Source: Candidatus Aenigmatarchaeota archaeon (lineage in GTDB: Archaea > Aenigmatarchaeota > Aenigmatarchaeia > CG10238-14 > SpSt-28). From it: a DNA stretch of 64,000 bases. Position 1 is the stretch's first letter, and each line of letters starts with the position of its first letter. The position numbers were made by a program, and so were the translations under genes. The stretch covers positions 23,616 through 87,615 of the forward strand of contig JAWBNO010000001.1 in the NCBI GenBank assembly GCA_039000725.1, read 5' to 3'. Under the pieces are notes generated by a model. The model was not told the DNA's origin and ran no database searches. It saw only the letters and a list, made by a program, of their open reading frames with translations. This document shows, one piece after another, positions 1 through 24,929 of this stretch.

Positions 1-3000
1 CATCTGTTATGTTGCACTTAAAGGTATAATTACCTTTATCCTCTGGCTTAAACTTATAACTAACAAAACCTGAATTATTTGTTGTTAGTTCAGCTAACTT
101 TATGAAAACGTTACTTGGCTCCAATTTATAATACAAACTAACATTATAATCTGGAATTCCACCAGCATATACATCTTTAACTAAACATACTACATCAAAT
201 TCTTCTGGATATGGAAGGACAGAATTATTTAATGGATATATCCAAATTACATCAGATAAGCTATTTATATAAATTGTAACATTATTACTACCATCATCAT
301 AATATGCTTTCTTTGCTATAGCCATTAAAGAATGTCTTCCTGTTATTTGCTCAGCAACTCTTATTTGAGGTATAAATGTGTCTAAACCTGTTATTAAAAT
401 AGAGGTTTCATTCCACCATTCAACAGTTGGATTTATCAAAGTTTCATTTTCTCCATTCTCACTCCATACTCTAGCCTTAACCGGAATTGGTTGAGACTTT
501 GGCCAGTAAGAATTGTTTTCTGGTTTTTCTATTTCAACAAACAGTATACCTTTAACAACAATAACTGTAGTATTAGTTTCAGATGGTTCATTTATGTTGC
601 TTGTTGCGTTTATGTATATTGTTACTGATTGTGGTATAATTGAATCATCAAAATCAATATTCTCTATAGTACACCAACCAGTTGAATTTGTTAGGCAACT
701 TCCTAAGTAACTTGTATCATTATAGAATGAAACGTTAGCATTTACAGCATAACCTATGAATGAATCTCTTACTCTAACAGATATATTAGCTTTGTTTGGA
801 ATAAATGTATCGTTTCTGTAAACAAAGCTTGGAGATATTATTCTTTCTATAATCAATGGTCTCCTTATATTTATATATATTGTACTAGAGTTTATAGTTG
901 GTCTATAATACAAAGTTGAATTTTCTTCAATCCTACAATCTATCTTATGCAATCCTCCACTTTCTCCAAAAGTATTCCATGCATAAGTAGCAATCCCGTT
1001 TTCATTTGTGAAAGCGGTTCCTATTTCTTCATCGTCTCTATAAAACTTAACCAAGTAATTTGGAATAGGAGTAGTTGTATTATAATCAGTAACATTACAC
1101 TCTAAATTAACTAAATCTCCTGCCCAAACAACAGTGTTATTTGCTGGATTAATAAATCTAACACTAGACCAGCCATAAATGAAAATTGAAGAAGAATTAA
1201 AGTTAGGATCGAAATTGGATAAAGAAACATTTACATAAATTGTTTCCATTCCTAACTTATATGTAGTTGGTATTAACCATGTTGTGTTTTGACCAGTAGA
1301 TATCAATCTCCAAGTAGAATTGTACCACTGAGCAACTGCAGTTGGTTGGTATCTTAAACACTCATCATATACAGAAGCATTAAGTGAATTTATAACTCCT
1401 CTCATCAAAACTTCTCCATTTAATGGTCTAATTATTGAAACATTTAACTGTCCTATAACAGTAAAGTTTCTTGTTGTAGAATTAATTGGCTTGTAGCATA
1501 AATCTCCACTAGATGCGAACCAATACTGTATACCTTCTAGAGAATAACAATCTGGATTGTAGTAAACTGAACAACTTCCATTAGATGTTGTACAATTCAA
1601 AATAAAGTCAAAATTATTTCTATCTCTTGTTATCCATACTGTAACATTTGCACCATCTGGATATATTCCTCTATCTGAATCGTAAACTGTAACTTTAAAT
1701 GTTGCAACATTGTCTCCTATTCTTCTAACTACTGTACTACTATCTGCCCCCAAAGTTACACTAACATCATTTCTTTCAAATGTTATATTTAAAGCTGAGC
1801 TTTCGGCAGAAAATCCTGTTGAATCTACTGTTGTAGCTTTATACAAAACAGTTGAATTCAAAAGATAATCTTCACAGCTAAATCTTTCTGTAAATGTAAC
1901 CGGATAGTTAGAATATGTAGGTGAAACTACTTTAGAGTTAACATAATGCCAACTATTTCCGCCATCGAAACTCTTCCAAATTGTTACATTGTTTGGTGAT
2001 GCGTCTGTATCTGTAATTCTTACAGTAAATGTATATGCTTCACCCCAACCTCCAAATATTTTATCAACTGTAAAACTGTTTATAGTTGGTGCGGAAGCTA
2101 TAAAGTAAGCATTTGACTTAATAGTTGAATTGTAACTTGGATAATCAGAATAATAGACTTTTCTTCCTAAAACTCTAATGCTATGCCAACCAAATGGTTT
2201 TCCACTTGTATCAAAACTACAATTGTAAGTTCCATTATTCATATCAAAAACTGGAGTGCAAGAGAATTGATTTCCGCCCCAAACGCTGTACATCAATACA
2301 TCGGCGCCACTAACAGTTTCACAATCATCAAATAAAGTAGCATAGAAAGGAACTTGAGTGCCTCTTAAGAAAGCTTCTCCGTTTGGATAATCAATTCTAA
2401 TTCCAAGAAAACTTCTTATTGTTAAAGAGTAGTTTTGTGTAGAAATATTTTTATAGTAAGGATCGTCTATTATAGAAGCAAACCATTTTTGAATTCCTGT
2501 TTTATATAAAGGTTCACAACCAGGATTAAATTCAAATATCGCATAACCTGTACCATTTGCATAAACTAATGTTCCACTATCAAAATTGTTACCGTCCAGA
2601 GTAACAAAGAAGTAGACTCTAGCATCATTTGCATAATCTTCTCTATCTGTATCTATAACTCTAACTCCTAAGTAAGCTATATCTGTTCCATTTCTCCAAA
2701 CAAAAACATTATTTCCGCTAATTAGTTCAATAGATATATCATCTTTTTCAATTGTAAAGTTGTTTGTCAATGTTCTAACTATATATCCTCTAGTATCTTC
2801 AGCCTCTATATAATAACTCCAGTTTCCTTGTCTTGTTTGGAATGTTGATGGATCTTTATAGAAAATTGTTATTGTTGTATTTAGTGGTCCTTGTAAGTTT
2901 GGATCTTCATAGAAAGATGAACTATTTGCCAAAATCCAACTATCTTCATTTTCATATTTTATGAAAACTTTCAATGTAACTCCATCTAAATCTTCATCAG

Positions 3001-15000: not shown

Positions 15001-18000
15001 AGCTACCAATCAAAACATATGGTAAGGCGTTAAATGGTGCTATTCTAGTATTTGCATCTTTATAATACAAAGATGCTTGTACTCCTCCAAACCAATAGTT
15101 TTGTCCTAAATTAAAGTTATTTAAAGGATTACAGAACTCTTGATTTGAAGCCTTAAGTATTATATAACCACTCTCATTTATTGAAGGTGCAATTGAGTAA
15201 ATCTTATAAGTTTGATTATTACCAAATTGGCTTAAAGCTATATAAGCTTTGTTGTCTTCTAAAACAAAAGGTATTGTTTGATTATCAATATCAAATGCAT
15301 ATATTGTGAAATTGTAACCAAAAGCTCTTAAAACAGTTTCATTCCAGGATGGTTGAATTGGAGTAAGAGCTAAATCATCCTTTTCTACAGTAAAAACATA
15401 ACCATAAAGCTCTTTACTACCATCAGTATTTATTCCTTCAAACTTAAACTCCCAATTTGAAATATCAGTATAATCGTAATCATAACTAAAGTTAAATTGA
15501 TGCCAATCGTAGCAAGAATAGCAAGTTTGCTCTCCAATTAACCTCCAAATATCACCAACTTTTCTATGGTAAGCTCTAATTGTTACATCTCTTCCATATC
15601 TATCTCTAACTTCAACACCAAATTCAAACTTCTCTCCCCATCCACCAGTATTGTTTTCATTTCCGTTTATGTAAAGCTTTGCATTTCTTAAGAGAGGTGT
15701 ATAGTCGTAGAATTTTGATTTTATAAAAATGTTTTGAGATTCGTTAAATAGGTTTCCTAAGTTCCATGTAAATTCTATTTTATCTATTGAAATGTTTGCA
15801 AAAGGATCTTCTGTAGAATCAACATATGAAGATAATTCTATTTTTCTCAAACTTTCTATGAAATAATTTCTAAAATCTTCTTTTATTGGGAAATGTAAAG
15901 TATAAGTTCCAAATTTCTCATCAAAACTGAAATCTTGCCAAACTATATATTCTCTATTCAAATCATCAAAAACTTTTAGATAAGAATTTCCTATGGTTAT
16001 ATTTTTACCTAAAAATTCATTAGAAAGGGTAAAAACTAGGTTATCTAAACTTTCATATCTTGCATTTGATGGTTTTTCTAAATTCAAAACTTGCGTTAAT
16101 ATGCAATAAGCTGGTTTAGATGTTGAGCTACAATTTAATAATAAGTTAGTTTCGTTAGTAATTTTGCTTCTAGTATCTCTTAATCCTTCTGCAACCAAAA
16201 TGAATTGTTTTTCATTACTGCAAACTATGGTAAAGTTGAATAGTTGAGATTGGTATACATTTAAATTTCCAATTTGCCAAACAATTTTTCTTTCGCTACT
16301 ATTCCAATACCCATTTTCAATATTCGTTAAATAACATTCATCTGGAATATATAGCTTTATTGTCCATTCTGAATTTGTATTTATATCTCCTATGTTAGTT
16401 ACCTTTAATGTTAAGTTGTAAGGTACATTTGCTCTTATACTTCTAACTTCTGGCCAAGGATAGTTTGGATCTTGAGTTACAAATAGATCAAATTGTAAGT
16501 GGGATTCTTGAGGATATCTATATGTATAAACCTTAGCATTATACTTATCTTCTAAATAGTAGATTTCATTCCAGCTAACATTATAACTCATGGTGCCTTC
16601 TGTTGCTAATCCAGGTGGAGCTTTAACTTGATAAGATAGGACTGCATATTTATTTGGTTTAATTTCACTTAACTTCCAAGTTAATATATTATTAATCAAA
16701 TCTGTTTCTGCATAAATTAAATCAACATCTTTATCCATAACTTCTTCATCATTCGCATATTCATTCTTTTCTATTGAAGGATTTGCTCCTATCCATCCAG
16801 CAGAAATTTTTTCTACTAATGTAACATTATTTGCTATTCCACATCCTTTATTATGTACAACTATTCTAGGTTTAAATACGATTGAAGAAGAAACTATGGA
16901 AGGTATTTCTCTTATAACTTCCAAAATAGGAATATTTGGTGATACTCTAATTTTAATTTCCTTTTCTAAATTCTTTCCTTTAGCATAACTATAGTTTAGA
17001 ACAACAAAAACAGAATATTCTTCTTCATAATCAGAAAAGGCAGTTAAGTTAAACTCTACTTCATAATATCCTTTTCCTTTAGAATATATTTGAACAAAAG
17101 ATGGAGAATAACTCCAACCATTAGGAACTCTTAAAGATACATTATATTCAATTTCATCTTCTAACGGCTGATAAATTTTAACTTTTATTTTTTCTGTTGT
17201 TGAATTACATTGATATTTAGAATAATCTACATCTAACTTCAATCCTCCTAATACAAAATCCCTATAAATTATTTTTGAAATATTCTCATAGCTCAAAATA
17301 GCTATTATTCTATATTCTCCTTCTTCCAAATTAGATACTTTAATGTTTGTAAAGTTGATATAAGCATAACTATTTGCTCCAACATATCCTTCTCTTTCTG
17401 ACGAATATATTTCATTTCCATCTTTAACCAATTTCAAAGTTAAATTAAACATTTTACCTTCATCCAAAGAATTACCAATCCTAACTGAAACATTTAAATA
17501 ATCTTCAGATTTATCCAAACTCTCTACTTCAACATCTTTTATTATCAGTTTTATTCCTTCTACTTTTGCTGTTTTATTATAATAAGCTGTAAATGTTACT
17601 TTTTCTATATTAACAAAATTATCTCCAAAATTTGAAATTCTAACCAAACATTTTCCATCGGAATTTGAGCTAATTTGATTTAATAATATTGGAATGAAAT
17701 AGTTTTCGTTTCCTTCTACGTTTAAGTTGTCCTTTACAGTAATCCAATTAGATGAGTTAAATGTTTCTATTATAATCTTAGAACCTTGAGAAGAAATGTT
17801 TAAAGTTAAGTTAGCAACTCTATAATCTCCAGCTTCACAATCAAATTTGAGAATTAGAGCTTCTTCTGGCTGCAAAATTTTTGGCAACGAATTATCTTCT
17901 GTTTGTAAGAAATTGTACACAATAAATTCTCTACTAAAAGTCTCTTTACTTCCAGCATTGCTTGAATTTACATAAAAGCTTATTCTATAAACTCCGCTGC

Positions 18001-21000
18001 TTGTTGGATATATATTCCAACTTACTCTTTTAAACTCTCCAGTTTTAACTTCTCCCAGATATATTACATTTTTATCAACAAACCAACCATTTGGAATACT
18101 AATATTTATATAAACATCATTAGCATCTCCTACCCAAGAAGTAACATAAGTCACAATTGTAAAGTTTTTGTATTGAAATGTTTCTCTTGGCAATTCTATT
18201 GAATAAATATCAATTTGTGGTTGACAACCTGGAAGTTGAATTGTTATGGAATAGTTTCCAATTGATGCTTTTTTATAATAATGATTATCATCAGTTATTT
18301 CAGCACCCCAATATTGAGATCCTTCTAGCCAACCATAACAATCTGTTATATTAAGTAAGTAGTTTGCGTATCCAGATTCATTTGTATAAACACTTCCCAA
18401 AACTTTATAACCATTTGGATATCTATCATCATAAATTTTGAAAGTTACCAAAGCTGGGGGATTTAATTCATATGTATTTGCATCTAAATCAAAGACTCTA
18501 ACAGAAAGTAAAGCTGATTGCGTATTTCTTATAACAACAGAATTATTTCCACTAACATATTCCAAAGAAACATCATCTTTTTCAACAATTACATATTTTA
18601 CTTCTGTTGTAGATGTTGGACCTAAAGAAAACCTATAGTACCAAGTTCCTACTTCATTTGAGCTAAAGTTTCTTAAGAAAGTTACAACTTGTCTATAACA
18701 ATTAAAGCAACTTACTGGAGTAAAATTAACACATTCGTAGCAAGGTAAAGCTGGTGGCCAAAGATTTCCCAAGTATATGTTTACATCAAAACTTTCTTCA
18801 CTATTTCCACTCGAAGCTAAAACTGTGAAATTCCAATTCTTATATCCCCAACCTTCTTGCAATGGATAAGATTGTGGATTTTCTAATTTGTAAATTGGAA
18901 GAAGATAGAATAATCCTGGAATACCAAAATTTACACTCCAATTAGAATAATGAAACTCTTTCCAAGCAAACATACTAACATTATACCAACCCATTGGAGT
19001 TGTTATTTCTGTATGCCAATCACAAGTATAGGCATTAGAACCAACTTGAATTACATCAGAGCACTCAAAAGATGCTAAACTATGGTTTGCGAAAAATGTT
19101 GTATTTAAAGTTAATGGATCTCCACAATCGTCAATAACATAAGCTAAAAATGTTATAGTATCTTCTTGAGTGTAATTTGAAGTACCATCAGGCCTAACTA
19201 TATTTGGTATTATGTCTCCAGTTACCAAAACTCTTAACTCAAAATAATTTTCTGTTGAGTTATCAAAATAGCAATCATCATTTCTTAATTCTGCCTTCCA
19301 TTTTTGATATCCAACCAGATATTTTGGAGAACATAATGCTAAGAAATTATAATTAGCATAACCTGAAGAATTTGTTTGGACTAAGCTTCCTATATCATAA
19401 ACTATTCCGTCTAAGGTTACGTAAAATCTTAAAGGTAAGTTTGAAATATATGTACCATTAAGATCTTTTACCCTAACACTCAAAACTGTTGGAAGTTTTC
19501 CTCTTCTACTTTCAGTACTATTTCCTAAAATTTCTTCAAAAATTATTCTACTCTTAGTTATGGCAAATGGTAGCAAAGTAGAATTCACTGTTCCTGCAAA
19601 ATTGGTTGCATTAAATTTAATAAAAACTGGATTACCTATATCACTACAATCTGGATCGAATTCAAATGAATAATTTTTCCAAATTCCAATGTTGCTTCCT
19701 GGAGCTTGATATACATCGCAACCTATTAATTTAAATGGCTCAGTTCCTGTTTTACTAAACCAAGAACAAATTTGAACATCATTCTCTGAATTAGAAACCC
19801 TAACTGAAATGTTAAATGTAAAGTTAAAACTCCATGAGCCAGAAGATGAACCTGTTTCTTTTGAAATTGCTATTGGATTTTCTAATTCAATTAATGCTGG
19901 TGGTGCATTTATTGTAATATCTCTGCAAGAAGAAACTACTGTAGAATTTTCAGTGGCATTTGCATTAATACAAAATGTTATTATTCCTGGTGATAATCCT
20001 GTAGTGTCTATTGTGAAATAATAGTCATTAAAAGCAACTTTCGTTTCTTTTGGTAGTATATTACCCAAATAAATCCAATTACTTTCTATTCCACTAGAAT
20101 TATAAATTCTTAAATTTTCTAATCCTCTCATTGGAGTAGAATTAGTATAGTTAATCCAAACTATTACATTACTTGCATTTCCTGGACCATCATTATAAAT
20201 GTTTGCCGAAATGTTGAAGATATCATTAACATATATAGTTGGCTCTGGATATTCTCCTATTCTTGTTCTAATTTGGTCTACACTTAAAGAAGCTCCACAA
20301 GAAATTGAAATTATATATTCTTCATCGAAAAAGCTAAAAGTGTTGTTAAGTGCTAAAGATTGAAAACTAAAAGTACCATTAGTTTGATATGGAACAAAAA
20401 TTGAATAAGTAAAGTTTCTTGCATTATCTTTTCCTGTAGTTATGAAATTTATTCCGCCATCCCAGCTAATTAGTTTTGATTGCTCTAAATAAGGATTAGA
20501 AGGATTAAAATCGTAGAAAATTAGATCTCCAGGATGGGTTTTAAGTATATCGCTTTTTGTTTCATTTATTCTAAAGTTATAAGCAGGTAAATTACCTTTA
20601 TTAAAAACTTGTAATTTAGTTGAAAAATTACCGCAAGCGAAAAATGATGGAAAATCTTGTTGTTCATTTGTTGGAGTAGTGTTATAATATTTTATTGTTT
20701 TAATCCATGGTCCCCTTAAAACTACAACAGGTCTGGCTGTTGGATGCCCCCATCTAGATCTCTGTTGATAAGCATTCAAATAAATTAGAAAAGCCTTACC
20801 GCCTGGTGTAAATTCTGGAATATAAGACGTGTTAATACTGAAATTTATTAAAACTCTACTTTGTGAACTAACCGACCAATACCTGTTATTTGTTCCCGTT
20901 TTACCGGCGGTCGATTTAAATCCAGTCCATTTAACTTCATAACCACTATAAACAGAACCTCTCGGATAACCATCATCTGGTTCTACATCAAAATTAAAGG

Positions 21001-24000
21001 GAATTATTCCGGGAGGTGTGTACATTTCTATTGTATAAATGTATGAGGTACCATCACCCGTGTTTCCTATTTGCAATTGAACTCCTATGTTATTAGTACC
21101 ATAAGGTAAAGATGTTATATTTAAAGTTACAGTAAATGGATCTGTATTAGTACCAACTGCTGGAGATTGATAAATATCAGTAAGTGTGATTGGACTACCG
21201 GTTTCCGGATCGTTCCATATAACTTCCGTTAAATACTCTTCTACTCCTGTATCACCTATTGGTAGATATCTAACATTATACCAAAAACAATCAGAAACCG
21301 TGATATTTCTTTGCAGGCATTGAAAGTTACCTGTTCCTTTAGTGCAATCAACACCATCTGAAGTTGTTATTGTTGTAGAGGCAGAACCAACATTTTCAAC
21401 AGTAGTATATTCTGTTATATTCGCAGTTATGTTATAGTCGCCGTAATTGCATATCCACACTGTTCTATTGTTATAGGCATTTGTTGTATCAGCAGTGCTG
21501 TGCTCGGGGGATGTATGAAAAATAACTAATGGTGATGGCTTGTTACCACCATAGTTGTAGACTTCGAAGTTTTTTTGATATTGTTTTGAACCACCACTAT
21601 AACTTATATTTACTTTAGCTGTGTACGTTTTTGAAGCATCGACATTATCTGGTACTAATATATGCCACCTTAAAGTTGTATTAACACCCGGATTTAAAGA
21701 AGAAATTGTTTGAGTATTACCCTCTATCATAAACCAGTTAACTTTGTTACTTCCATCGTAAATTTCTAAAGTTACATTTATGTTGCTTAGCGAAGAAGTT
21801 CCATAATTTTTGAGTGGTAGGATAGCTGTTGCTACATGTCCTCCAATAACTTTGTTTGAAATTAAGTTCCCTTGCATGTTGAATTTCTTCTCACCAGTAG
21901 GTGAAAATATCTCAAAGCTGTCAAAAATATCAACACCGTCGCAAGAAATTAATTGTACATCTAATTTATCCGTATCATATTTTACTTGTGCATATGTTGC
22001 AGATAAAAATATCCTAAGCGTATACCAACCTATTTCTGCAGTGGGAGAAGTAGTTATATCAAAAGTTGCATTACCACATCTATCCGCAATACCTGGATCA
22101 CATGTAAAGCCAGATGCACCACCACTGAAACCTTCCACTTGGTATGGTTGGGCAGATAAAACACTCCACCCATAGTATGGTAAATTATTGAATGTTGCGT
22201 CGGTAGGTTTTTTAATTCTTATAAAAGCGTTCTGTGCCGATGTAGCGTCATCACTCGCTAATTCGATTATTGCAACTTTGATTGTATAATTTTTGCCTCT
22301 ACAAATAGCCTCTGGACTAACTATGTTAGGAGTATTTTTTTCATAAATTTCCCATACCATAAAAAAGTATCTAACATCTGCGACGGCTAGTGTCCAGTAC
22401 TTTGATTCATTAAAGCTGTAGTTGTTACTCTCTATAGTTAGTGGGCCTATTGAATAGATTCTAGGAGAAATATATGGTGTTGTAAAAGAATATCTAAGTT
22501 TAATTAGCTCACCTTCGCTTACAGAAGTAAAGTTCCACATAATACTTATATATTCTGGATTTTTGGAAACTATTCCGTTTGTCTTTATGTTGGAAAAGTT
22601 CAAAGGTAAGTATTCAACTATTGTCACATTTGTTGCATTAACCATAGACAGAATTTCTATTTCCATAGTTGGTTCAGTTAGCATATCTGCAATGGTAACA
22701 GAACTCCTCTTTACGAAGAAAGAAGAAGAATCTCTTACCTCAAAAAAAGTTTCATAACAAAAGCTTGAATTTTTACCTGAAATGTAAGAATAGATAGTAT
22801 ATTTTCCTATTTCGTTGGTTATGTTATGATAAACAACATACGTACCGTCACCATTATTTTTAACAGTATCGTTCAAAGTCGAATAAGTATAATTTTTTCC
22901 AAGTGGTGAATTGATTATTAAAGTAATATTTGCGTCATAAACTCTCTTTCCTAACTCGTTTAAAACTCCAATTATTATCTCTACCTCCTCACCAGGTAAG
23001 TAAATAGATTTTGGCGTATTGATAGCAACCAATCCAACTCCAAATTCTGTTTCTTCCTCTTCTAAGACTTCAACAACTTTTTCCGAAAATTTAAATGGCT
23101 CTCTTCCTTTTTCCACAAACTTTTCTTCAATCGTCTTGACTTTCAATTTATACAAACCTGGCCTAAAACTTCTTCCAAAATCTAAATCAACAAAATATTT
23201 GCCATCTTTTTCATAAAACTCAACTTCTTTTTCACTTCCTTCGGGATCTATCAAATAAACTTTAACATTTTTTCTATCAACTCTCTTTTCAAAATTAATT
23301 TCAAATTTTGCCTTTTCACCTAAATTATAATTGAATTTCTCTTTCACTATTTTTGGTTTAAACAAAAATTCTCTACCTTTTAATTCAATAGTTTTATTTA
23401 CCACTCCATATTCACTAAAAACAATCAAATCTAAAGAATAATTTAAAGGTAATAATAGATTAACATAAAATTCAAAATTATCAGAAAAGTTTTGGGAAGA
23501 ACTAAAAACTGTTTTACCTTGGAAGTTTTTAACTAAAAGCGTCACATTTCCAGGAATTAGATAATTACCATATGTTAAATTACCAAATACTCTAATTGTT
23601 GTTGTGTTTAATCTATCATAGAAAACATTTAGCGTTAACTTTACATATTCAAAATAAATTGATTTTTCCTCTACTAAATCTTTATAAACTGCTTTAATTT
23701 TGTAATTTCCAGATTCTGAGAAATTAGCATCTAGAATTGTTTCAAATTTACCATCTTTTACTTCAACTTGAATACTATAAACAACTTTATCCTCAAGGTT
23801 TATAGAAATAATCAAACTATCAGTAATTTTTTCTCCATAGATAAGCTCTCCATATATTTTTATTTTTTCACCATATTTGTAAAAGTCCTTATCTGTAAAT
23901 AACTTTAGCTCTTTCCTAAAAGTTTCTTCTTTATATATTTCAATTTCTTTCTCAGAACCAAAAATAAAAGAATCTTCATCACCCTCAAAAACAACTTTAA

Positions 24001-24346
24001 CTAAATTTTTTCCTTCAGATAAATTCAAAGAAATTTCAAAATTTCCTTCTTCATTAGTATTTAAAGTTGAAACAAGAACATCATTAAGAAAAACTTTAAT
24101 TTCTCTATTTGATAAAGCTGTACCGTTATCTAGAATCAATTTTCCTGAAATAATGTTTTCAAAATTATTAATTAAAATTTCTGAAGAAGCATAAACGTCT
24201 ATGAAATCTGTTTTCTCTTTTTCTAACTTAACTCCAACAAACCTTCCAGTTATATTTTGAATATTGAAAACTAAAATTCCTAAAATTCCAATTAAAGCCA
24301 AAATAAGTGCTGAAAAAACTTCAGCCTGCCCTATTTTCTTAGCCAT
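1..24346 (-). CDS. Giant secreted/surface repeat protein. The N-terminal >8,115 codons are in the window; the C-terminus and stop lie beyond the left edge.
   Basis: The minus-strand frame is open from ATG (24344-24346) to position 2 with no stop. It is absent from the ORF track because it is not closed in-window, and no other minus-strand ORF is listed for 1-24338. The N-terminus MAKKIGQAEVFSALILALIGILGILVF has a basic head plus a hydrophobic helix. Fifteen GGWGE-type motifs all sit in this frame, with offsets that are multiples of 3. The last in-window codons read ...KGNYTFKCNITD. Confidence 0.85.
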   Translation of the reverse strand, partial: MAKKIGQAEVFSALILALIGILGILVFNIQNITGRFVGVKLEKEKTDFIDVYASSEILINNFENIISGKLILDNGTALSNREIKVFLNDVLVSTLNTNEEGNFEISLNLSEGKNLVKVVFEGDEDSFIFGSEKEIEIYKEETFRKELKLFTDKDFYKYGEKIKIYGELIYGEKITDSLIISINLEDKVVYSIQVEVKDGKFETILDANFSESGNYKIKAVYKDLVEEKSIYFEYVKLTLNVFYDRLNTTTIRVFGNLTYGNYLIPGNVTLLVKNFQGKTVFSSSQNFSDNFEFYVNLLLPLNYSLDLIVFSEYGVVNKTIELKGREFLFKPKIVKEKFNYNLGEKAKFEINFEKRVDRKNVKVYLIDPEGSEKEVEFYEKDGKYFVDLDFGRSFRPGLYKLKVKTIEEKFVEKGREPFKFSEKVVEVLEEEETEFGVGLVAINTPKSIYLPGEEVEIIIGVLNELGKRVYDANITLIINSPLGKNYTYSTLNDTVKNNGDGTYVVYHNITNEIGKYTIYSYISGKNSSFCYETFFEVRDSSSFFVKRSSVTIADMLTEPTMEIEILSMVNATNVTIVEYLPLNFSNIKTNGIVSKNPEYISIMWNFTSVSEGELIKLRYSFTTPYISPRIYSIGPLTIESNNYSFNESKYWTLAVADVRYFFMVWEIYEKNTPNIVSPEAICRGKNYTIKVAIIELASDDATSAQNAFIRIKKPTDATFNNLPYYGWSVLSAQPYQVEGFSGGASGFTCDPGIADRCGNATFDITTSPTAEIGWYTLRIFLSATYAQVKYDTDKLDVQLISCDGVDIFDSFEIFSPTGEKKFNMQGNLISNKVIGGHVATAILPLKNYGTSSLSNINVTLEIYDGSNKVNWFMIEGNTQTISSLNPGVNTTLRWHILVPDNVDASKTYTAKVNISYSGGSKQYQKNFEVYNYGGNKPSPLVIFHTSPEHSTADTTNAYNNRTVWICNYGDYNITANITEYTTVENVGSASTTITTSDGVDCTKGTGNFQCLQRNITVSDCFWYNVRYLPIGDTGVEEYLTEVIWNDPETGSPITLTDIYQSPAVGTNTDPFTVTLNITSLPYGTNNIGVQLQIGNTGDGTSYIYTIEMYTPPGIIPFNFDVEPDDGYPRGSVYSGYEVKWTGFKSTAGKTGTNNRYWSVSSQSRVLINFSINTSYIPEFTPGGKAFLIYLNAYQQRSRWGHPTARPVVVLRGPWIKTIKYYNTTPTNEQQDFPSFFACGNFSTKLQVFNKGNLPAYNFRINETKSDILKTHPGDLIFYDFNPSNPYLEQSKLISWDGGINFITTGKDNARNFTYSIFVPYQTNGTFSFQSLALNNTFSFFDEEYIISISCGASLSVDQIRTRIGEYPEPTIYVNDIFNISANIYNDGPGNASNVIVWINYTNSTPMRGLENLRIYNSSGIESNWIYLGNILPKETKVAFNDYYFTIDTTGLSPGIITFCINANATENSTVVSSCRDITINAPPALIELENPIAISKETGSSSGSWSFNFTFNISVRVSNSENDVQICSWFSKTGTEPFKLIGCDVYQAPGSNIGIWKNYSFEFDPDCSDIGNPVFIKFNATNFAGTVNSTLLPFAITKSRIIFEEILGNSTESRRGKLPTVLSVRVKDLNGTYISNLPLRFYVTLDGIVYDIGSLVQTNSSGYANYNFLALCSPKYLVGYQKWKAELRNDDCYFDNSTENYFELRVLVTGDIIPNIVRPDGTSNYTQEDTITFLAYVIDDCGDPLTLNTTFFANHSLASFECSDVIQVGSNAYTCDWHTEITTPMGWYNVSMFAWKEFHYSNWSVNFGIPGLFYLLPIYKLENPQSYPLQEGWGYKNWNFTVLASSGNSEESFDVNIYLGNLWPPALPCYECVNFTPVSCFNCYRQVVTFLRNFSSNEVGTWYYRFSLGPTSTTEVKYVIVEKDDVSLEYVSGNNSVVIRNTQSALLSVRVFDLDANTYELNPPALVTFKIYDDRYPNGYKVLGSVYTNESGYANYLLNITDCYGWLEGSQYWGAEITDDNHYYKKASIGNYSITIQLPGCQPQIDIYSIELPRETFQYKNFTIVTYVTSWVGDANDVYINISIPNGWFVDKNVIYLGEVKTGEFKRVSWNIYPTSSGVYRISFYVNSSNAGSKETFSREFIVYNFLQTEDNSLPKILQPEEALILKFDCEAGDYRVANLTLNISSQGSKIIIETFNSSNWITVKDNLNVEGNENYFIPILLNQISSNSDGKCLVRISNFGDNFVNIEKVTFTAYYNKTAKVEGIKLIIKDVEVESLDKSEDYLNVSVRIGNSLDEGKMFNLTLKLVKDGNEIYSSEREGYVGANSYAYINFTNIKVSNLEEGEYRIIAILSYENISKIIYRDFVLGGLKLDVDYSKYQCNSTTEKIKVKIYQPLEDEIEYNVSLRVPNGWSYSPSFVQIYSKGKGYYEVEFNLTAFSDYEEEYSVFVVLNYSYAKGKNLEKEIKIRVSPNIPILEVIREIPSIVSSSIVFKPRIVVHNKGCGIANNVTLVEKISAGWIGANPSIEKNEYANDEEVMDKDVDLIYAETDLINNILTWKLSEIKPNKYAVLSYQVKAPPGLATEGTMSYNVSWNEIYYLEDKYNAKVYTYRYPQESHLQFDLFVTQDPNYPWPEVRSIRANVPYNLTLKVTNIGDINTNSEWTIKLYIPDECYLTNIENGYWNSSERKIVWQIGNLNVYQSQLFNFTIVCSNEKQFILVAEGLRDTRSKITNETNLLLNCSSTSKPAYCILTQVLNLEKPSNARYESLDNLVFTLSNEFLGKNITIGNSYLKVFDDLNREYIVWQDFSFDEKFGTYTLHFPIKEDFRNYFIESLRKIELSSYVDSTEDPFANISIDKIEFTWNLGNLFNESQNIFIKSKFYDYTPLLRNAKLYINGNENNTGGWGEKFEFGVEVRDRYGRDVTIRAYHRKVGDIWRLIGEQTCYSCYDWHQFNFSYDYDYTDISNWEFKFEGINTDGSKELYGYVFTVEKDDLALTPIQPSWNETVLRAFGYNFTIYAFDIDNQTIPFVLEDNKAYIALSQFGNNQTYKIYSIAPSINESGYIILKASNQEFCNPLNNFNLGQNYWFGGVQASLYYKDANTRIAPFNALPYVLIGSLYNTIIYPLNVNFSFELDTITLRGRVVDDCGNIRADEDMYVYFNLTNGNYNYQCIATRVGNEFQCTFNPRALNSPLGWYNITMYSSKPLHTDGLFEEKYAFFLSTVPDIVNVSIQPFGGPWGLSPFNFSAIVIDEDGNFVNITHYLRKIPDQYFVAYLDNCTNCNYYLTSFLRDFICDYDTVEVGDWRYRIEAKDESGFLNSSSEISFVIEKEPIEINISEGHSLINRTNVPNSMPLNLSVFIRDTILNRNVTEIPQVSIKFEGPNSFVYEMNVDVYNEKYYYEFYPGCGYQAGEYKWYSYVSGDECYANARSDNYTIKIYGTLYTSIISPSEYQYVTEGQNVVLRASVIDDCIVTITDANVYFILRNERTGDEFRCPENGFANYDGTSYICSFNTIGKPGGNYSVIAYSSKNYYWNSSVIKENVFFLITPVRILNVTMVYEQDGGWGEIHNFTAFIDHYNDVIVCLLEKPIDSQQYQISECKNLENPSGGKYITFSKRYTCSDFVRSQFWNYKINATEFGVPSSYSESQEYSHLLQKNDLQLTIVYNDTEAKRYDEEKAILAVYAYDLDQKQPAYVPLYSSPNIKYQVYNGTSFVYISSNSTNSSGYSIISFKPDCSYMVGPKEWYSYTEADACYKNVISNRENITIVGRLNPLLVFPIEQQYNRYAQLYVNLSAIVRDECNSVYFDNANVIFKARSVAFGTEYLCENVVYDNGYYNCSLNATEIEEGWYDVNVTASGIVYYDSYYYIQPNSFKIIHTLVPPVLRGEEAIPEQDGGWGERWYFRVNVSDLNGDDVNIYLWISRDGNNWELVNSTVCYNCGSERTIELSYKGFTCEDRIRSPIYFKFNASDVYNTTDRSPNMLYLNKNDAVLEYYSGNESYIIREIGDFLRVRVYDADAKYYSNANVSLFVTTDGNNFVYIDSNISEDSIVSLFFNPDCRFYRGLQYWKAEIIEDECYKPVSSETFTTYIVGHLQSFITYPSGQKFLRGSNITLNISVKDECNVRVEGATLNITMISNLNPNYKYNCTEIIDFGDGNYSCTFNSTDMLPRFYNVSYSISRIYYISNNFSYSNIFWIETNPILFNLRATPNILGWGETLTVKVNFTDEDLDTLYVNFYLIKGNSYKFSSVVVSGINVEATTTFTFSPGDIGDWTVIANVSDDFGKYELNTSITVEKDDVSIILVSGNNSVANRAGQYATFTLLAWDTDRNTNVMAGLQTAFWVTNKTNDLGSYKQIGTSYTSSDGTFSINFAPDCSFEVGVQRWKGGLLTNQLYKEANSTDYFVNVVSEFDGTITQPSGNILLRGTDSLLIRGYLTDIAGCGLVKGATVLFGIEGTDINCLATDEGNGYYSCIIDSSTLSLLPYGWYNVTMNASREFYVNNVSVVKENAFYLADNPKLSNPQVSPGYASWGTKFVLNVTLYDFDYDTKTVYLWLSKDGTNWFLGGTQIYVGPTPYEGVNIGFEIPTSCANISLYYFKFNATDTSGYSTEIPGSTFTVDKRPTAVIPVYGNNARVNREYQIIPLTVKVLDALNGSEVSNVNVGFFLYNKYGSEIFYENRTNSSGIVYFEFDPDCTFNPGSTSWIAGVYNDACYVSVNSTYSILVAGQLKTEIIEPYKDSKFPTGELIKLNISVYSDCLEEGRIDNADLNVKIVDPYDTIYECSPISQFNGFYNCTFNSSFKKPGYYDVLVNSTKEYYDYNYTEYIDWFKILNAPPTYSNIQVNPTQSYWTDRYVFSVDISDSDFDKVNCSLEIKEKIGDIWNHINSTIIEGSGTCSFTIDSFSCDDIGEREFRFVLDDGANEPVITEIGRFNLTKSLINITLVSGNGTSIIRQTGYGTFSVRVYDLIKNKNIGYSNNLPETNVIFKVTKDGNNYIILTPDGIGTYNGLASTVLVPDCSYLASLQKWQAYVENDACYYDNSSEEFYYNVIGKLEPRVISPTNGIKYLKGSNVSIYTNVSDDCGNLVDADTFNITLRSVSTSTNYVCEHERIDIGNYNCTFETSDKPAGYYSIILNATKLYHLSSTYTENNAFWIETLPSVINLGTNRPLDRGGWGEPWSFRANVTDEDKDPVYVYAWYRVKGTEEWQLLGTGQKSQGTISSIVSITPSPSFDCSKLLGLPEVEYEFFFNVSDDDSNTAESNIRNFTLEKDDITVSIVQGDGIIYNRSSPLKVSLGVSVFDRDRNSAVNQPYNASLYVTYNGYSYVFDQIRTSSSGTITFSFPNASKCLYQVGPQLWRVNIDSLCYKSAASPIGSINITTIPLNVTLTYPVNKVFDLGQDVPVIININDDCGFVPQASVDLVIKNQDGQEYVCNNLIDYLNGTYSCTFSNLALGYYTVLVNASKQNYPEGETYVAENAFLVASYPSISNVRAYSSRRNDIYGGWGDLWIFEVQLYDSDQEKFDFERLNISLYVNLTGSYELVNSTVCFSPECKDLTTITLTTTFDCNAIGNRNYKIVLRDYFNNTAEDFGFINIQPNEVSLYVREYPASIVREGENSGRFIVSVYDEDRRIYASDVNTTFKFTKDGSNFNFVVYGLSDSYGNVSYDLNPDCSFNAGYQYFKAETSDYCYSFSETLNYEFDIIGSLRNYIIDPKNGSEIIIEYGKSINISTLIEDECENEVGGALVELKAIWPNNYQENIPFVNSLNGIYNFSWDLSYKIGGSYSFLLSSSKEHYNSNSTLFSNWLTLVNYPPIVENISVTPETGGWGEVFTFKADVLDLQRDTVVCKLYIFTGKGEWLFKGSKIIPNGVGTCEINVTDFDCGDINITSLTKFKFEIDDGTNIFNTTEVLAPSIERNDVTLILITGNNSFVNRTYGSTLFSMRIRDLDRNIYPANVNVSVFATKDENSYSFLGIISSNSTGYLNYNFAPDCSFSAGIQKWKFEVNDSCYKRVSSEDYITTIYGWLQNTITEPLNGKRYLRGSNVTILGYVNDECNNFVSVDVINIKAKSNQTLQEFVCEPVIEDSLGNYNCTFNTSYPIVMPARFYNISMYTEKQYYNPSILTVYNAFFIETKPEIYYVTSYPSGDGGWGETWRFVVNFTDEDLDTNTITLNLQRYFGWIQQSVLSSGINVSVMFNYSSFTGQDIGEKEFYITIQDARSYTDNSSVYKIYIDKDDVELIHVFGNNSVYNRSSRPFVNFRVAVLDTDRNVYVGPNRQGIFYYTKDRVNFVNTSYIYTDSQSNLTLSSVRVDCSFEVGPQRWIAGILNDGFYKNKNSTTFEFTVITNNLTINLTKPKIGESFLRGIDNITLEVTISDDCGFVSGANVILYIPRNGFTCNAVDMNNGTYYCTIRNTQHLNWDLGWYDIIVRASKQYYNSSEVLVENLFFLASAPSFATMPIIQSQQGGSIGGWGEKWSFGIYVRDDDLNLVNVSLYVKEGDSWKLLNSTIIEGQPNPQLVEFVGHTFSCEDIGIRDLMFVATDEFNYSSNVTSTFTIERNDVYIEYQIPYSFTINREGAESAPLTIKVYDADREYVPIIADIGYNVTSDGNEFIFVGSNQSDIEGLSIYNFDADCRFRVGEQRWRAFTKDNACYKDQYYEIPGAKVNIVGQLKQSLNYPIENQFVDVGDVVEFNVSIPTDCSEDGLQNQTVLTIKIDGPSGTEYCSPIIDLGNGYYTCYWNTSFHKGGYYNFTITGSKINYNPNTTFYPNWVYLINTPPSYNNVSFSPSIAGWGSTFNFSVDVDDKQYDNVTCKLFVYTGRNEWIYKGESIVYNGKGRCLVTVNNFDCLDINTTSEVKFKFELYDGTNRINTTEYSGPSIVKDDVIVEYYIGNQSIVNRTGNNYAPLVVRIKDAIRNTYVGSNVYGRVFVTKDGINYDEGTFNLTDSNGFLRIYFDPSSDYEAGVQKWKGGVYGDSCYFDANSTEYYVTVIGSLYSNLLLPVGYTEYLKPEENITLLTKVFDDRGVEISDSSVEMILISEYGNIYNCQPVIPRGSGEYECTINTSLIKARYYNVSINASKPYHNFGHSLIENVIFVKTKPILEGERVISKDGTTLGGWGETWKFRVNVTDEDLDGVTLKVFIKYENEDSWILANSSSFYEDPNLQGPLNTTITIFYKDPSTFQTRQGNWSYYIEAEDTRGYIVRTLTNNFTIEKDDISIELISGNNVFVWRNGTDIAYLGVRVIDTDREDYANDARVYFFVTLDGNNFDSGTLVYANGTGYAIFEFNPGCEPLYKTGIQKWFASIIDDPYYKNISTQNYSLTIRSFLGIRIDYPNGEAFLRGTQVPFYATLFDDCETVSGADVLMYSVWGGNQFSCTPVFDMNNGTYNCSFDTSGKPFGWHSIRVLGRKVYYSDYPSYNSTIKSNAYFIASAPTINSFTVDKIFGGWGEAYTFTVRITDTDASPNNVTIWKSFDGGNSWHYVNSKVVSPTYSNYPVTFTERFSCEDYLLNSTVLYKATTVDSTGFSAESSALNITFERNDVSVTLGADSSTVVRRIGDNVATFKVTVYDSDRGIYPDGANVTVWITRDRNNFDFILNCTTSNGSCSVYYNPDCYSLEGIQYWFASSGDLCYKPINSTTRNFTVIGQLNVSIIRPLNGEVLMRGVINSLNASVYDECLRYQPTAVAQWYNSTWRLISTGQNTTWLIPTTYKLGMETIYVNVSLSNFDPNFNSSSIFIYGWSSVRFINPANNTVVWAGDLVNLECNVTDYNTTTPIPNYLVKFYRDDEEIGTAFTNENGIATYAWNTFGESGGLHKIDCRIEENSTLYYRPTINSSTIYINIRRPLIIERIISPSFVYRNDTFIPNKANISVRVRDSFIGYAVNANVSFYNDTSYLGSCLTNSTGWCTIENIDFDDSIIPQSVTIYINATSNINEPSETNTTVIVVKGILFVEIEKPENNSYWPKSQPIPVKARVWSENGENETLINPTVEWWNETSILITGLDTFIPQIRVAEQITGRHSLMAIAKKAYYDDGSNNVTIYINSLSDVIWIYPLNNSVLPYPEEFDVVCLVKDVYAGGIPDYNVSLYYKLEPSNVFIKLAELTTNNSGFVSYKFKPEDKGNYTFKCNITD
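1150..15700 (-). repeat. In-frame tandem array of ~15 diverged tri-domain modules (~945-999 nt, ~324 aa each) inside the giant ORF
   Basis: The GGWGE-type motif (reverse complement ttcaccccaacc-like) occurs at 2039, 3026, 4001, 4961, 5924, 6890, 7856, 8843, 9815, 10769, 11714, 12662, 13655, 14633 and 15632. Spacings are 987, 975, 960, 963, 966, 966, 987, 972, 954, 945, 948, 993, 978 and 999 nt. Each module has three parts: a GGWGE...D-x-D domain; an (E/D)(K/R)(D/N)D-V...GNNS...V-x-V-x-D-x-DR...PDCSF...CYK domain; and an LRGSN-x-T...DDCGN...G-x-Y-x-C-T-F-N-T-S...GWYN domain. Array boundaries are approximate. Confidence 0.8.
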
Positions 24347-24782
24347 AGATAACTCTCACCTTAATTTCTTTTTTTCCAGGAAGCGTAGAGATAGAAGTTT
24401 TTACCTTAAAAACTACTTCACAAGTTTCATTTATACCAATATTTTCACATATTTCTTGATCTTTATCTGAATCCATACCTTCTGGTAAAACAAGATAAAT
24501 TTTAAGACTCTCTAATACCTTATTTCCGCTGTTTTTGACTTTAACAATATAATCAAAACTTTCTCCTCTTTTAAGTTTGCTTTTTTCTAAAACAGTAAAA
24601 ATTTGGAAATCTGAGAACTCTAAACTTTCGTTTTCTGCTGATATATTTAAATCTTCATATATTGAAGCTTCTTCAGTCAAATTTTCTTCTTCATAAGTTA
24701 CATTCTCTTGTGCTATAGCTAAAAAAAGAAAAAAGGCTAGAAAAATTACTATAATAGCCAAACTCTTTTTATTTATTATCAT
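24339..24782 (-). CDS. Small secreted beta-sandwich (CARDB/NEW3-like) protein, translationally coupled to the giant ORF
   Basis: 147-aa ORF with a Sec-type signal (MIINKKSLAIIVIFLAFFLFLAIA|QEN). The pattern GESFDYIVKVKNSGNKVLESLKIYLVLPEG resembles CARDB-type domains. An SD-like GAGGT lies upstream. Its stop (24339-24341) overlaps the giant ORF's ATG (24344-24346) within tATGGCTAA. Confidence 0.6.
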   Translation of the reverse strand: MIINKKSLAIIVIFLAFFLFLAIAQENVTYEEENLTEEASIYEDLNISAENESLEFSDFQIFTVLEKSKLKRGESFDYIVKVKNSGNKVLESLKIYLVLPEGMDSDKDQEICENIGINETCEVVFKVKTSISTLPGKKEIKVRVIYG

Positions 24783-24865
24783 TCTACCTCACTCTAATAG
24801 TTAACACTACTAATAACTACTATTGAATGTCGATGGATATATGGTGTTTTAATAATAATTGACGG

Positions 24866-24892
24866 TTTTGTCGAAATAATCTATCGACAAAA
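24866..24892. promoter_or_regulatory. Perfect inverted repeat TTTTGTCGA-N9-TCGACAAAA in the divergent promoter region; candidate operator
   Basis: The arms are 24866-24874 and 24884-24892. It lies between the giant-gene operon (minus strand) and the wHTH regulator gene (plus strand). The same TCGACA/TGTCGA hexamer recurs five more times within 24838-25513. Confidence 0.5.
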
Positions 24893-24929
24893 TTTTAACT
24901 TTTTATGACAAAAATTGAATATAAATATT

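Follow-up and report, generated by a model that had tools for sequence, protein, structure and literature searches.

The 64,000-nucleotide (nt) stretch described here, referred to as the window throughout, is part of contig JAWBNO010000001.1 of a Candidatus Aenigmatarchaeota archaeon (assembly GCA_039000725.1), has a GC content of 29.5%, and is dominated at its left end by a single giant gene. Translation of the reverse complement of window positions 1-24346 yields a minus-strand frame that starts at the ATG at 24344-24346 and comprises 8,115 codons without any stop, and since this frame runs off the window edge it is absent from the program-made list of open reading frames (ORFs). An in-frame stop is encountered four codons 5' of the ATG, and the encoded protein begins with the residues MAKKIGQAEVFSALILALIGILGILVF. 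An earlier interpretation made from the nucleotide letters (hereafter the sequence-only reading) had proposed a single open frame of more than 8,115 codons that occupies 38% of the window, and both proposals were borne out (24,346 of 64,000 nt, no stop on translation). The encoded protein belongs to the already described family of SPEARE-type giant proteins and has a well-defined three-domain module, a super-repeat, and a newly noticed hypervariable cassette, as presented below. Probably, the ORF represents the N-terminal ~80% of a membrane-anchored surface glycoprotein of ~10,150 amino acids (aa), by which this member of the DPANN archaea would bind a partner cell.

The base counts of the window allow the estimate that ~9% of random codons on the minus strand would be stops, and therefore a frame of this length is not expected by chance (estimated probability ~e^-750). 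Collapse of repeats during assembly is unlikely because the repeated protein modules share only 23-41% identity and the longest direct DNA repeats within the giant gene are at most 75 nt, at 60-85% identity; analysis with TRF found no DNA tandem repeats in the gene. Moreover, two independent Logan short-read contigs cover the upstream region and the initial ~1.2 kb of the giant gene at 100% identity. The open frame is thus real. That it would nevertheless be a pseudogene, or a chimeric or collapsed array that is not translated as one protein, is hardly credible. Three short-read assemblies do break within the giant gene, two related loci (L011 and L018) contain stops or fragmented gene calls, and a search of protein collections did not return a full-length protein, but 8,115 stop-free codons at 29.5% GC can neither arise by chance nor survive decay, the divergence of the protein repeats and the lack of DNA repeats longer than 75 nt leave little to collapse, the domain order is collinear with that in independent assemblies, and the Logan contigs are 100% identical up to the edge of the cassette.

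The deduced protein is rich in Asn (9.2%), Ser (8.7%), Thr (7.4%), and Tyr (7.2%), and contains 1.7% Cys. Its sole hydrophobic segment according to Kyte-Doolittle analysis of all 8,115 aa encompasses residues ~5-33, in agreement with the N-terminal signal anchor that had been read from the sequence, and the first 35 residues are identical in the corresponding protein (P0243) of a sister strain (GCA_044343155.1). In addition, the protein contains 292 N-X-S/T sequons (3.6 per 100 aa), versus 115 +/- 9 in shuffled sequence and 0-0.66 per 100 aa in cytoplasmic neighbour proteins. The combination of a single hydrophobic segment with this excess of sequons over shuffled and cytoplasmic proteins argues strongly for an exported, N-glycosylated chain. 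The N-terminus could alternatively be of class III (type IV prepilin-like) and be processed by a prepilin peptidase, its helix then being incorporated into a pilus-like fibre or the tip of one, which would make the protein a giant pilus-associated adhesin. The sequence K-I-G/Q-A-E (KKIG/QAEVF, slash at the presumed cleavage site) directly precedes the hydrophobic stretch of ~20 residues, relatives have RG/QSQLL, SG/QSQLL, or AG/QSQLL at this site, and archaeal pilins of the EppA type are cut at KG/Q[VIL] with a conserved Gln at +1 (PMC4371748). This alternative is considered improbable, as the residue at -2 is Ile rather than the usual charged residue, genes for PilB and PilC or a prepilin peptidase are absent from the 64-kb window, and a pilin-like N-terminus together with a C-terminal transmembrane (TM) helix would tie down the protein at both ends.

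Besides the N-terminal segment, the entire chain appears to be built from beta-sandwich domains (Table 1). A module of ~324 aa occurs in 17 copies, as two copies in aa 1500-2127 and 15 tandem copies in aa 2898-7677, the last of which is truncated. These copies, which are 23-41% identical to one another, were detected by self-BLAST of fragments followed by iterated hidden Markov model (HMM) searches, both of which were required as a first self-BLAST of the whole protein had disclosed no repeats. The module is characterized by the motifs GGWGE, PDC..G.Q.W, D.CYK, DDC, and NG.Y.C. Cys is conserved at several positions of the copies, and five of their residues are invariant. The ~324-aa module of the sequence-only reading is thereby real, although the tandem array is not its only site: the two copies N-terminal of the spacer had been missed. 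An AlphaFold2 model of one copy (aa 5806-6130, based on the 17-copy alignment) consists of three successive beta-sandwich domains, is all beta, and has a pLDDT of 92.9 and a pTM of 0.81. The two module groups are separated by a spacer of 770 aa that is 32-61% identical to segments of seven homologues (P0001, P0003, P0005, P0006, P0007, P0008, and P0009). Since the spacer is conserved in all seven and occurs twice in three of them, modules and spacer together constitute a higher-order unit of the family. The AlphaFold2 model of the spacer is likewise all beta (pLDDT 82.8). The ectodomain measures 8,080 aa in the window part of the protein, which is estimated to contain ~76 beta-sandwich domains, of which 51 reside in modules, ~7 in the spacer, and ~18 elsewhere.

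Table 1. Organization of the giant gene, domain matches in its product, adjoining genes, and downstream gene sets in related loci
Feature	Residues (aa)	Position (nt)	Strand	Basis or score
Open-ended ORF, giant-protein codons 1-8115	1-8115	2..24346	-	Stop-free translation; stop past left window edge
N-terminal signal/anchor segment, MAKKIG/QAEVFSALILALIGILGILVF	1-33	24248..24346	-	Only hydrophobic window
Conserved N-terminal beta-rich region	34-439	23030..24247	-	97-100% identity between strains
Hypervariable cassette, MG2/Filamin-like and NEW3 beta-sandwich domains	~440-1215	20702..23029	-	Strain comparison
Conserved beta-domain stretch	1216-1496	19859..20701	-	93-99% identity between strains; weak CARDB match
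Module copies 1-2	1497-2127	17966..19858	-	Module HMM matches aa 1500-1805 and 1826-2127
Conserved 770-aa spacer, ~7 beta-sandwich domains	2128 to ~2893-2897	15668..17965	-	Homologues, AlphaFold2
Tandem array, module copies 3-17, last copy truncated	2894-7690	1277..15667	-	Module HMM, AlphaFold2
Post-array beta-sandwich domains, including Big_7 Ig domain	7691-8115	2..1276	-	Big_7 29.4 bits, aa 7728-7802
NEW3 match	840-916			31 bits
Big_7 match	7728-7802			29 bits
MG2 / Filamin match	442-522			Below threshold
CARDB match	~1370			E 0.003
DUF11 match (spacer)	2494-2591			E 1e-4
CarboxypepD_reg match	66-122			E 0.03
147-aa NEW3-domain protein gene (small secreted or membrane protein)		24339..24782	-	NEW3 24.4 bits
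Winged-helix HTH_24 regulator gene		24915..25382	+	HTH_24 E 2e-9; divergent from giant-gene pair
Downstream gene set, L005		17929-20301
Downstream gene set, L017		2013-4256, 5585-11410
Downstream gene set, L018		11209-13421, 15470-20419
Downstream gene set, L015		22183-30098

Searches with Pfam and NCBIfam models gave almost exclusively sub-threshold matches in the ectodomain, and no model that covers the module as a unit was found in these collections; the module is unmodelled rather than unknown. The HMM searches and structure prediction that had been proposed for the module have thus been run, with an all-beta model and mostly sub-threshold family matches as the outcome, and the chain of beta-sandwich domains that had been read from the sequence is supported by the models of both module and spacer. 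The finer domain assignments of that reading fared less well. The CarboxypepD_reg match within the first ~450 aa is under threshold (E 0.029, 15 bits), and the conserved region of aa 34-439 has only weak CarboxypepD_reg and Glucodextran_B matches, next to an internal duplication of ~245 aa (fragment self-match of aa 76 with aa 321). NEW3-like units had been placed at nt 18200-15700, and the NEW3 match is found within the cassette instead. The CARDB/DUF11-like character assigned to nt ~23000-20000 is reflected in weak sub-threshold matches only, of which the CARDB match precedes the modules and the DUF11 match is located in the spacer. The absence of a catalytic motif, in contrast, was confirmed: no enzyme domains were detected in the window part of the protein by Pfam, NCBIfam, or motif searches, and thioester, RTX, Walker A, HExxH, and GDSG motifs do not occur in the 8,115 aa. 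The possibility of an enzyme or toxin was rejected, as catalytic motifs and folds were absent from the motif search of these 8,115 aa and from the Foldseek results.

Structural comparison of the module with PDB entries by Foldseek retrieved strings of macroglobulin (MG) domains (complement C5 and C3, TEP1, alpha-2-macroglobulin, and CD109), strings of fibronectin type III (FNIII), immunoglobulin (Ig), or BIg domains, and the giant adhesin SiiE, with E-values of 1e-12 to 1e-8 at an identity of only 9-13% and TM-scores of 0.25-0.43. The spacer retrieved only MG-domain strings (alpha-2-macroglobulin, CD109, and complement), with low TM-scores. The resemblance of the module to MG and Ig proteins, which derives from the predicted model, is at the level of single domains only. 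MG proteins provide the best structural matches of module and spacer (E 1e-12 to 1e-17), and weak Pfam MG2 matches point in the same direction, but the likeness concerns single domains (TM-score 0.12-0.43, 8-13% identity), the bait region and the TED and CUB domains were not detected, and the thioester motif C[GLA]EQ does not occur in the 8,115 aa. A thioester protein of the alpha-2-macroglobulin type was rejected on the same ground (no CGEQ motif in these residues). The bacterial giant adhesins (SiiE, LapA/MpIBP-type RTX adhesins, and Bap/Ebh) also consist of megadalton tandem Ig-like chains that serve as spacers to present a distal binding region, and SiiE (2yn3) and the extender of a 'large adhesion protein' (6xi3) were among the Foldseek matches. 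They differ from the protein described here in their export and anchoring: GGxGxD RTX repeats number zero in 8,115 aa, the logic of a type 1 secretion signal is absent, identity is 9-13%, and orthologues indicate N-terminal export combined with a C-terminal TM anchor and an ATPase.

The comparison with the sister strain revealed a segment with strongly deviating conservation. Its contig L013, which carries the N-terminal 2,695 aa, shares 94-98% DNA identity with the window outside this segment. At the protein level, identity to P0243 amounts to 97-99% in aa 1-400, 31-45% in aa ~440-1215, and 92-100% in aa 1216-2693, and DNA identity to L013, which is 96-100% on either side, amounts to no more than 40-65% from nt ~23,030 to ~20,700. 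This hypervariable cassette has sharp edges and is of the same length in the window and the sister strain. A third protein, P0303, combines a near-identical background with a third cassette allele, such that three strains with 98-99% identity carry three alleles that are 32-39% identical pairwise, within flanks that are 93-99% identical. Conversely, the cassette of the window is 65% identical to that of P0301, the flanks of which share only 31% and 38% identity, and the proteins P0305 and P0226 share 73% identity in the cassette versus 29% and 56% in the flanks. The GC content of the cassette (34.5%) exceeds that of the rest of the giant gene (30.1%) and of the 5' flank (25.8%). Downstream of the cassette, aa 1202-1499 are 88.6% identical to P0001, and along the module array the latter protein is mosaic with respect to the window, with 72-94% identity in some blocks and 35-55% in others. 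A protein search with aa 1-1300 gave nine matches only and did not yield a census of the alleles.

All three Logan contigs that enter the giant gene (SRR27730012, SRR27730014, and SRR21619492) end at nt 23,163-23,244, i.e., 367-394 codons into the gene, just before the cassette and not at a DNA repeat. A fork in the assembly graph caused by co-existing alleles would explain these breaks, and mis-assembly driven by repeats was rejected as their cause, given the lack of long DNA repeats and the coincidence of the breaks with the cassette edge.

The alignments indicate that the cassette is exchanged horizontally between divergent genes. Because clonal backgrounds differ in this block whereas distant ones have it in common, it is likely to act as a specificity determinant under diversifying or frequency-dependent selection and thereby to contain the partner-binding region. 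More tentatively, aa ~440-1215 may constitute a swappable partner-specificity cassette that is exchanged across lineages while the rest of the gene remains clonal, located at the membrane-distal end of a ~10,000-aa tether that is connected to a cytoplasmic ATPase of the translocase type. Alleles co-existing within one population would allow an episymbiont to switch or broaden its hosts, as a cellular analogue of the mosaicism of phage tail fibres. Mosaic receptor-binding cassettes, as in phage tail-fibre tips and variable surface adhesins, similarly consist of a bounded segment that differs among nearly identical genomes yet recurs in distant ones; a difference is that the variation in the present gene seems to result from recombination, homologous or illegitimate, of a 2.3-kb block. 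Targets of diversity-generating retroelements in DPANN archaea are a second comparison for variable cassettes. Neither a reverse transcriptase nor a template repeat was found in the window, and silent cassette copies were not seen there.

The remainder of the protein could be predicted on the basis of its relatives. With the final 5,000 aa encoded in the window as the query, nine giant homologues were retrieved that measure 3,043-7,378 aa. Without exception they stem from metagenome-assembled genomes (MAGs), most are truncated by contig ends, and they are labelled as Nanopusillaceae (56% identity), Nanohaloarchaea (31% identity along the full query), Parvarchaeota, or "archaeon". All nine carry 6-15 near-full module copies, and in a set of 1.84 billion proteins a profile of the module matched 1,108 cluster representatives, including 333 with E<=1e-30. 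The nanohaloarchaeal MAG protein (P0002; 7,378 aa, with a DUF87 domain) aligns with 100% of the query at 31% identity (2,654 bits) and has 15 near-full modules. This protein and P0004 extend to the true C-terminus. In both, CARDB/NEW3-like domains and a Gly/Ala-rich linker precede two beta domains and a single TM helix with Lys and Arg residues behind it, and the chain is completed by a P-loop ATPase (with the sequences AAGGTGSGKS ... LIVYDEMHRL) and a terminal coiled coil. In addition, scans of genome and metagenome contigs identified eight loci with 62-64% identity to the final 600 aa encoded in the window. The same level of identity applies to aa 7691-8115, which also have partial matches to sub-domains of the module and are the start of a conserved C-terminal stalk that continues past the window.

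In six of these eight loci (L005, L007-L010, and L012) the ORF continues for 2,025-2,039 aa past the position of the window edge, with the Walker A motif ~313 aa before the stop, whilst L006 ends at its own contig edge and L011 carries stops within the homologous region. The tail encoded by L005 matches DUF87 (51.5 bits) and HerA_C (40 bits), and contains a TM helix, Walker A and B motifs, and a coiled coil; its weak matches include T4SS-DNA_transf, TrwB, and FtsK in Pfam, CedD, HerA, TraD, and CedB in NCBIfam, and HerA-type helicases in the PDB. In the sister strain, a C-terminal fragment of 667 aa on contig L017 (28.9% GC) has the Gly/Ala-rich linker, TM helix, Walker A and B motifs, and coiled coil that were also seen in P0002 and P0004. 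Because orthologous ORFs run this far beyond the window-edge point, the full length of the window protein is predicted at ~10,140-10,155 aa, ending in a TM helix and an ATPase of the HerA/FtsK type, a prediction that is well supported by homology, and the window would thus hold its N-terminal ~80%. Within L018 (positions 1-11203; JGI Ga0527077_0545), the corresponding region is called as a protein of 8,615 aa and pieces of 123, 401, 123, 380, and 66 aa, followed by a 400-aa DUF87 piece, ~10,100 aa in total, and this copy and that of L011 either are decaying or reflect indel errors in the assemblies.

The tail also occurs by itself. At E<=1e-10, the last ~450 aa of L005 have 470 homologues. Many of these are stand-alone DUF87/DUF853 membrane ATPases of ~720-790 aa, often encoded on long contigs, from Aenigm-, Woese-, Micr-, Pace-, and Nanoarchaeota as well as from Altiarchaeales and Heimdallarchaeaceae. 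Such ATPases are homologous to the TM helix, ATPase, and coiled coil of L005 and lack the giant ectodomain. The giant genes look like a stand-alone membrane ATPase gene to which thousands of residues of beta-sandwich domains would have been added N-terminally.

Giant proteins with a closely similar plan have been described by Hamm et al. (2019) as the SPEARE proteins of Nanohaloarchaeota, which reach 8,553 aa, are mostly extracytoplasmic, and have a TM helix near the C-terminus and a conserved cytoplasmic domain (PMC6642349). One of them was detected by proteomics, and homologues of the cytoplasmic part were noted in Woese-, Aenigm-, and Micrarchaeota and in Altiarchaeales (PMC6642349). Examples include NAR1_1133 of Ca. 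Nanohaloarchaeum antarcticus (5,998 aa), the 8,553-aa protein of Ca. Nanopetramus SG9, and SVXNc_0300 of Ca. Nanohalococcus occultus (9,409 aa) (PMC6642349, PMC10266531). The last of these and BNXNv_0298 (8,880 aa) were reported in a 2023 study of xylan-degrading consortia; in both, a Sec signal and an Ig-like domain are followed by two WD40/PQQ propellers, ~75 Ig-like domains, and a TM helix, and the C-terminal part comprises a VirB4/TraG-like ATPase with a coiled coil behind it (PMC10266531). That study rejected the assignment of protease and endonuclease functions, and proposed host binding and secretion resembling that of a type IV secretion system (T4SS). The cytoplasmic P-loop ATPase was annotated as 'type III restriction' in PMC6642349 and as VirB4/TraG-like in PMC10266531, and corresponds to DUF87/HerA in Pfam. 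Archaeal proteins of more than 10,000 aa are known from metagenomes, and are rare (bioRxiv 10.1101/2023.11.21.568195).

With these proteins the window protein shares an N-terminal signal followed by a huge extracytoplasmic chain of tandem Ig-like domains, and its orthologues and the sister strain have, as these proteins do, a single TM helix near the C-terminus, a cytoplasmic DUF87 ATPase resembling HerA and VirB4, and a terminal coiled coil; moreover, the organism belongs to the DPANN archaea, the gene occupies several percent of a small genome, and 15 copies of the 324-aa module are shared with P0002. The comparison with SPEARE proteins that had been drawn from the sequence therefore named the correct family according to the architectures in PMC6642349 and PMC10266531. 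The accompanying view that the module architecture belongs to no described family did not hold, because the same module arrays occur in giant proteins of other DPANN lineages, including P0002, with 15 modules and an end composed of TM helix, DUF87 ATPase, and coiled coil. The nanohaloarchaeal member with which ectodomain homology was established is this MAG protein, P0002. Neither the ATPase tail, which is located past the window edge, nor the hypervariable cassette was accessible to the sequence-only reading. Descriptions of the three-domain module, the super-repeat of modules plus spacer, or the hypervariable cassette were not found in PMC6642349 or PMC10266531. The differences from the published members comprise the lineage (Aenigmatarchaeota), the low GC content and non-halophile composition, the predicted length of ~10,150 aa that exceeds the maximum of 9,409 aa, and the domain content. 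The serine-protease-like, laminin-G, and BC-toxin-like regions of the original SPEARE definition have no Pfam or NCBIfam match in the giant protein, in which GDSG and HExxH are also lacking, and WD40/PQQ propellers of the SVXNc_0300 type gave no match in aa 1-1500. Finally, the partner genes downstream of the giant gene in orthologous loci encode a coiled-coil protein and a ParA/MinD-like ATPase and not VirB4/TraG.

These downstream genes are located outside the window in the present genome. In relatives the giant gene is followed by a gene for a coiled-coil protein of ~490-660 aa and by further conserved genes (Table 1). The coiled-coil protein is 27-30% identical between Aenigmatarchaeota, a nanohaloarchaeal MAG, and a JGI genome (E 1e-31 to 1e-41). 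A gene for a ParA/MinD-like ATPase comes next in L005, L017, and L018 and was not seen in L015, and a second large surface protein with MG2 and NEW3 domains (~1,650-1,950 aa) is encoded further on in L015, L017, and L018. A VirB4/TraG gene adjacent to the giant gene was looked for in the orthologous loci and was not found.

The proposed function can be outlined as follows. The giant protein would be exported by Sec and held in the membrane by the C-terminal helix predicted from the relatives. Its ectodomain would run from the conserved head through the ~775-aa cassette, two modules, the 770-aa spacer, and 15 modules, and then, past the window, through another ~2,030 aa with CARDB/NEW3-like domains, a Gly-rich linker, two beta domains, the TM helix, the DUF87 ATPase, and the coiled coil. 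At ~4 nm per beta-sandwich domain, the glycosylated and probably disulfide-stabilized chain could reach a few hundred nm from the cell at most. Binding to the surface of a partner (host) cell would be exerted by the membrane-distal N-terminal region, notably the exchangeable cassette, and the protein would thereby attach to its host. The cytoplasmic ATPase may couple this contact to an energy-dependent step, for which translocation of macromolecules is the most likely candidate because the nearest relatives of the ATPase are DNA-translocating ATPases (HerA, Ced, and T4SS coupling proteins), with the caveat that the HerA, Ced, and T4SS scores of the tail are far under the family cut-offs.

Several observations weigh against the assignment to SPEARE-type partner-binding proteins. 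The laminin-G, protease, toxin, and WD40/PQQ propeller domains of nanohaloarchaeal members were not found here with Pfam, and the gene that follows the giant gene in orthologous loci encodes a coiled-coil protein instead of a VirB4/TraG ATPase. The TM helix and ATPase lie outside the window and are deduced from orthologues with 62-64% identity and from a sister-strain contig that is not joined to the N-terminal fragment. Some copies of the gene are broken or mis-assembled, as L011 has stops and the gene call in L018 comprises 8,615 aa and additional fragments. If the N-terminal helix were not cleaved, the cassette would be positioned near the membrane rather than at the distal tip. Moreover, even the published SPEARE proteins are only hypothesized to attach to hosts.

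A wider function, which extends the partner-binding reading, would be that of a trans-envelope machine for transfer of DNA or protein, in which the HerA/FtsK/VirD4-like ATPase pumps the substrate, the ectodomain acts as a tether or guide, and the downstream coiled-coil protein, ParA/MinD-like ATPase, and ~1,900-aa MG2/NEW3 protein take part. Among NCBIfam models, the tail is matched best by CedD, a DNA-translocating ATPase (E 2.6e-11), HerA, TraD, and CedB; these are joined by T4SS-DNA_transf and TrwB_AAD_bind in Pfam and by HerA-type helicases as sequence matches in the PDB. The order of giant, coiled-coil, ParA/MinD, and large NEW3 protein genes is kept in L005, L017, and L018, with L015 lacking a visible ParA/MinD gene, and a T4SS-like role has been proposed before (PMC10266531). 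However, the ATPase matches are far under the curated cut-offs (43 versus 600 bits for CedD) and mostly local to the Walker A region, a channel-forming membrane component was not identified next to the single TM helix, VirB4, VirB6, and Ced partners were not seen in the loci examined, and nothing within the window bears on transfer, which renders such a machine a possible but rather unlikely extension.

A structural or protective envelope glycoprotein, comparable to an S-layer or a halomucin-like coat and without a role in partner recognition, would fit the heavy load of sequons, the monotonous chain of beta-sandwich domains, the lack of a lectin or receptor-binding domain recognizable with Pfam, and the location of the gene among housekeeping genes. 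Nevertheless, a coat protein has no need for a cytoplasmic P-loop ATPase, and a sharply bounded exchanged cassette within a gene that is otherwise 97-100% conserved is typical of specificity determinants and not of scaffolds. Furthermore, nearly all named family members seen in this analysis belong to DPANN archaea, with the ATPase tail also encountered in Altiarchaeales and Heimdallarchaeaceae. A mere coat is therefore deemed quite unlikely, and partner binding is preferred.

SPEARE-type giant proteins are the main candidates for the means by which genome-reduced DPANN archaea find their hosts, hold on to them, and exploit them. The present analysis extends this family to Aenigmatarchaeota by sequence homology of both ectodomain and tail, adds a high-confidence structural unit, i.e., the three-beta-sandwich module within a super-repeat of modules plus spacer, and shows a conserved neighbourhood in relatives composed of the coiled-coil protein, the ParA/MinD-like ATPase (three of four loci), and a second NEW3/MG2 protein of ~1,900 aa. 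Moreover, host recognition becomes testable through a 2.3-kb segment with the behaviour of a specificity determinant. If the predicted length of ~10,150 aa is true, the protein is longer than the published SPEARE-type proteins cited here (at most 9,409 aa), and its gene illustrates why such genes fragment in short-read assemblies.

Immediately upstream of the giant gene lies a small gene for a NEW3-domain protein of 147 aa with a hydrophobic N-terminus and five sequons. The stop of this gene overlaps codons 2-3 of the giant gene, and this 8-nt overlap suggests that the two may be translationally coupled. A Shine-Dalgarno-like GGTGA is located ~10 nt 5' of the giant-gene ATG, and GGTGA and GAGGT ribosome-binding sites could be read in the sequence. 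The same pair of genes is present in L001-L003 and L013. The divergently oriented gene for a winged-helix HTH_24 protein, the position of which is kept in L001-L004 and L013, encodes a candidate local regulator of the giant gene. The 132-nt intergenic region in between (24783-24914) contains a perfect 9-nt inverted repeat (TTTTGTCGA-N9-TCGACAAAA, window 24866-24892), which is a candidate operator between the regulator gene and the pair. In the module-bearing relatives P0209 and P0225, a winged-helix-like start (KHPEGLTI) takes the place of the signal peptide, suggesting that an HTH regulator like the neighbour in the window has been fused to these proteins, or mis-called upstream of them. A PAP2-family membrane phosphatase gene (25543-26568, minus strand), two genes away from the giant gene, with synteny retained in the sister strain, encodes a protein that could conceivably recycle the lipid carrier for N-glycosylation.

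The other neighbours in the window are archaeal housekeeping genes, including those for family B DNA polymerase, prolyl- and aspartyl-tRNA synthetase (AspRS), the alpha and beta subunits of ADP-forming acetyl-CoA synthetase, EF-1alpha, EF-2, ribosomal protein S7, and split RNA polymerase subunits; no tRNA or Rfam features were detected in the 64 kb. Proteins that cluster with those of the window at >=90% identity are annotated as Candidatus Aenigmatarchaeota. The EF-2 gene (45472-49137, minus strand; product of 1,221 aa) contains an intein with a LAGLIDADG homing endonuclease (Intein_splicing, aa 71-521). A gene for a 304-aa paralogue of the class II aminoacyl-tRNA synthetase catalytic core (tRNA-synt_2; 37691-38605, minus strand) without an anticodon-binding domain adjoins a full-length gene of the AspRS/AsnRS type (36369-37664, minus strand), and may encode an AsnA-like or other synthetase-derived enzyme. 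A gene for a tyrosine recombinase (Phage_integrase) with a C-terminal zinc ribbon is found at 59594-60796 (plus strand), and the GC skew flips its sign from ~58 kb on (58000-64000), which may reflect an integrated element or merely a switch of the coding strand. Finally, a single ORF of 1,432 codons (51999-56297, minus strand) encodes RpoB' (Rpb2 domains 4-7, aa 1-598) and RpoA' (Rpb1 domains 1-5, aa 604-1408), and as their junction (...YPKLVIDEEGKVNKIEFSILSPD...) is in the same frame without a stop or an obvious start, and the other two frames contain stops, it looks like a true rpoB'-rpoA' gene fusion.

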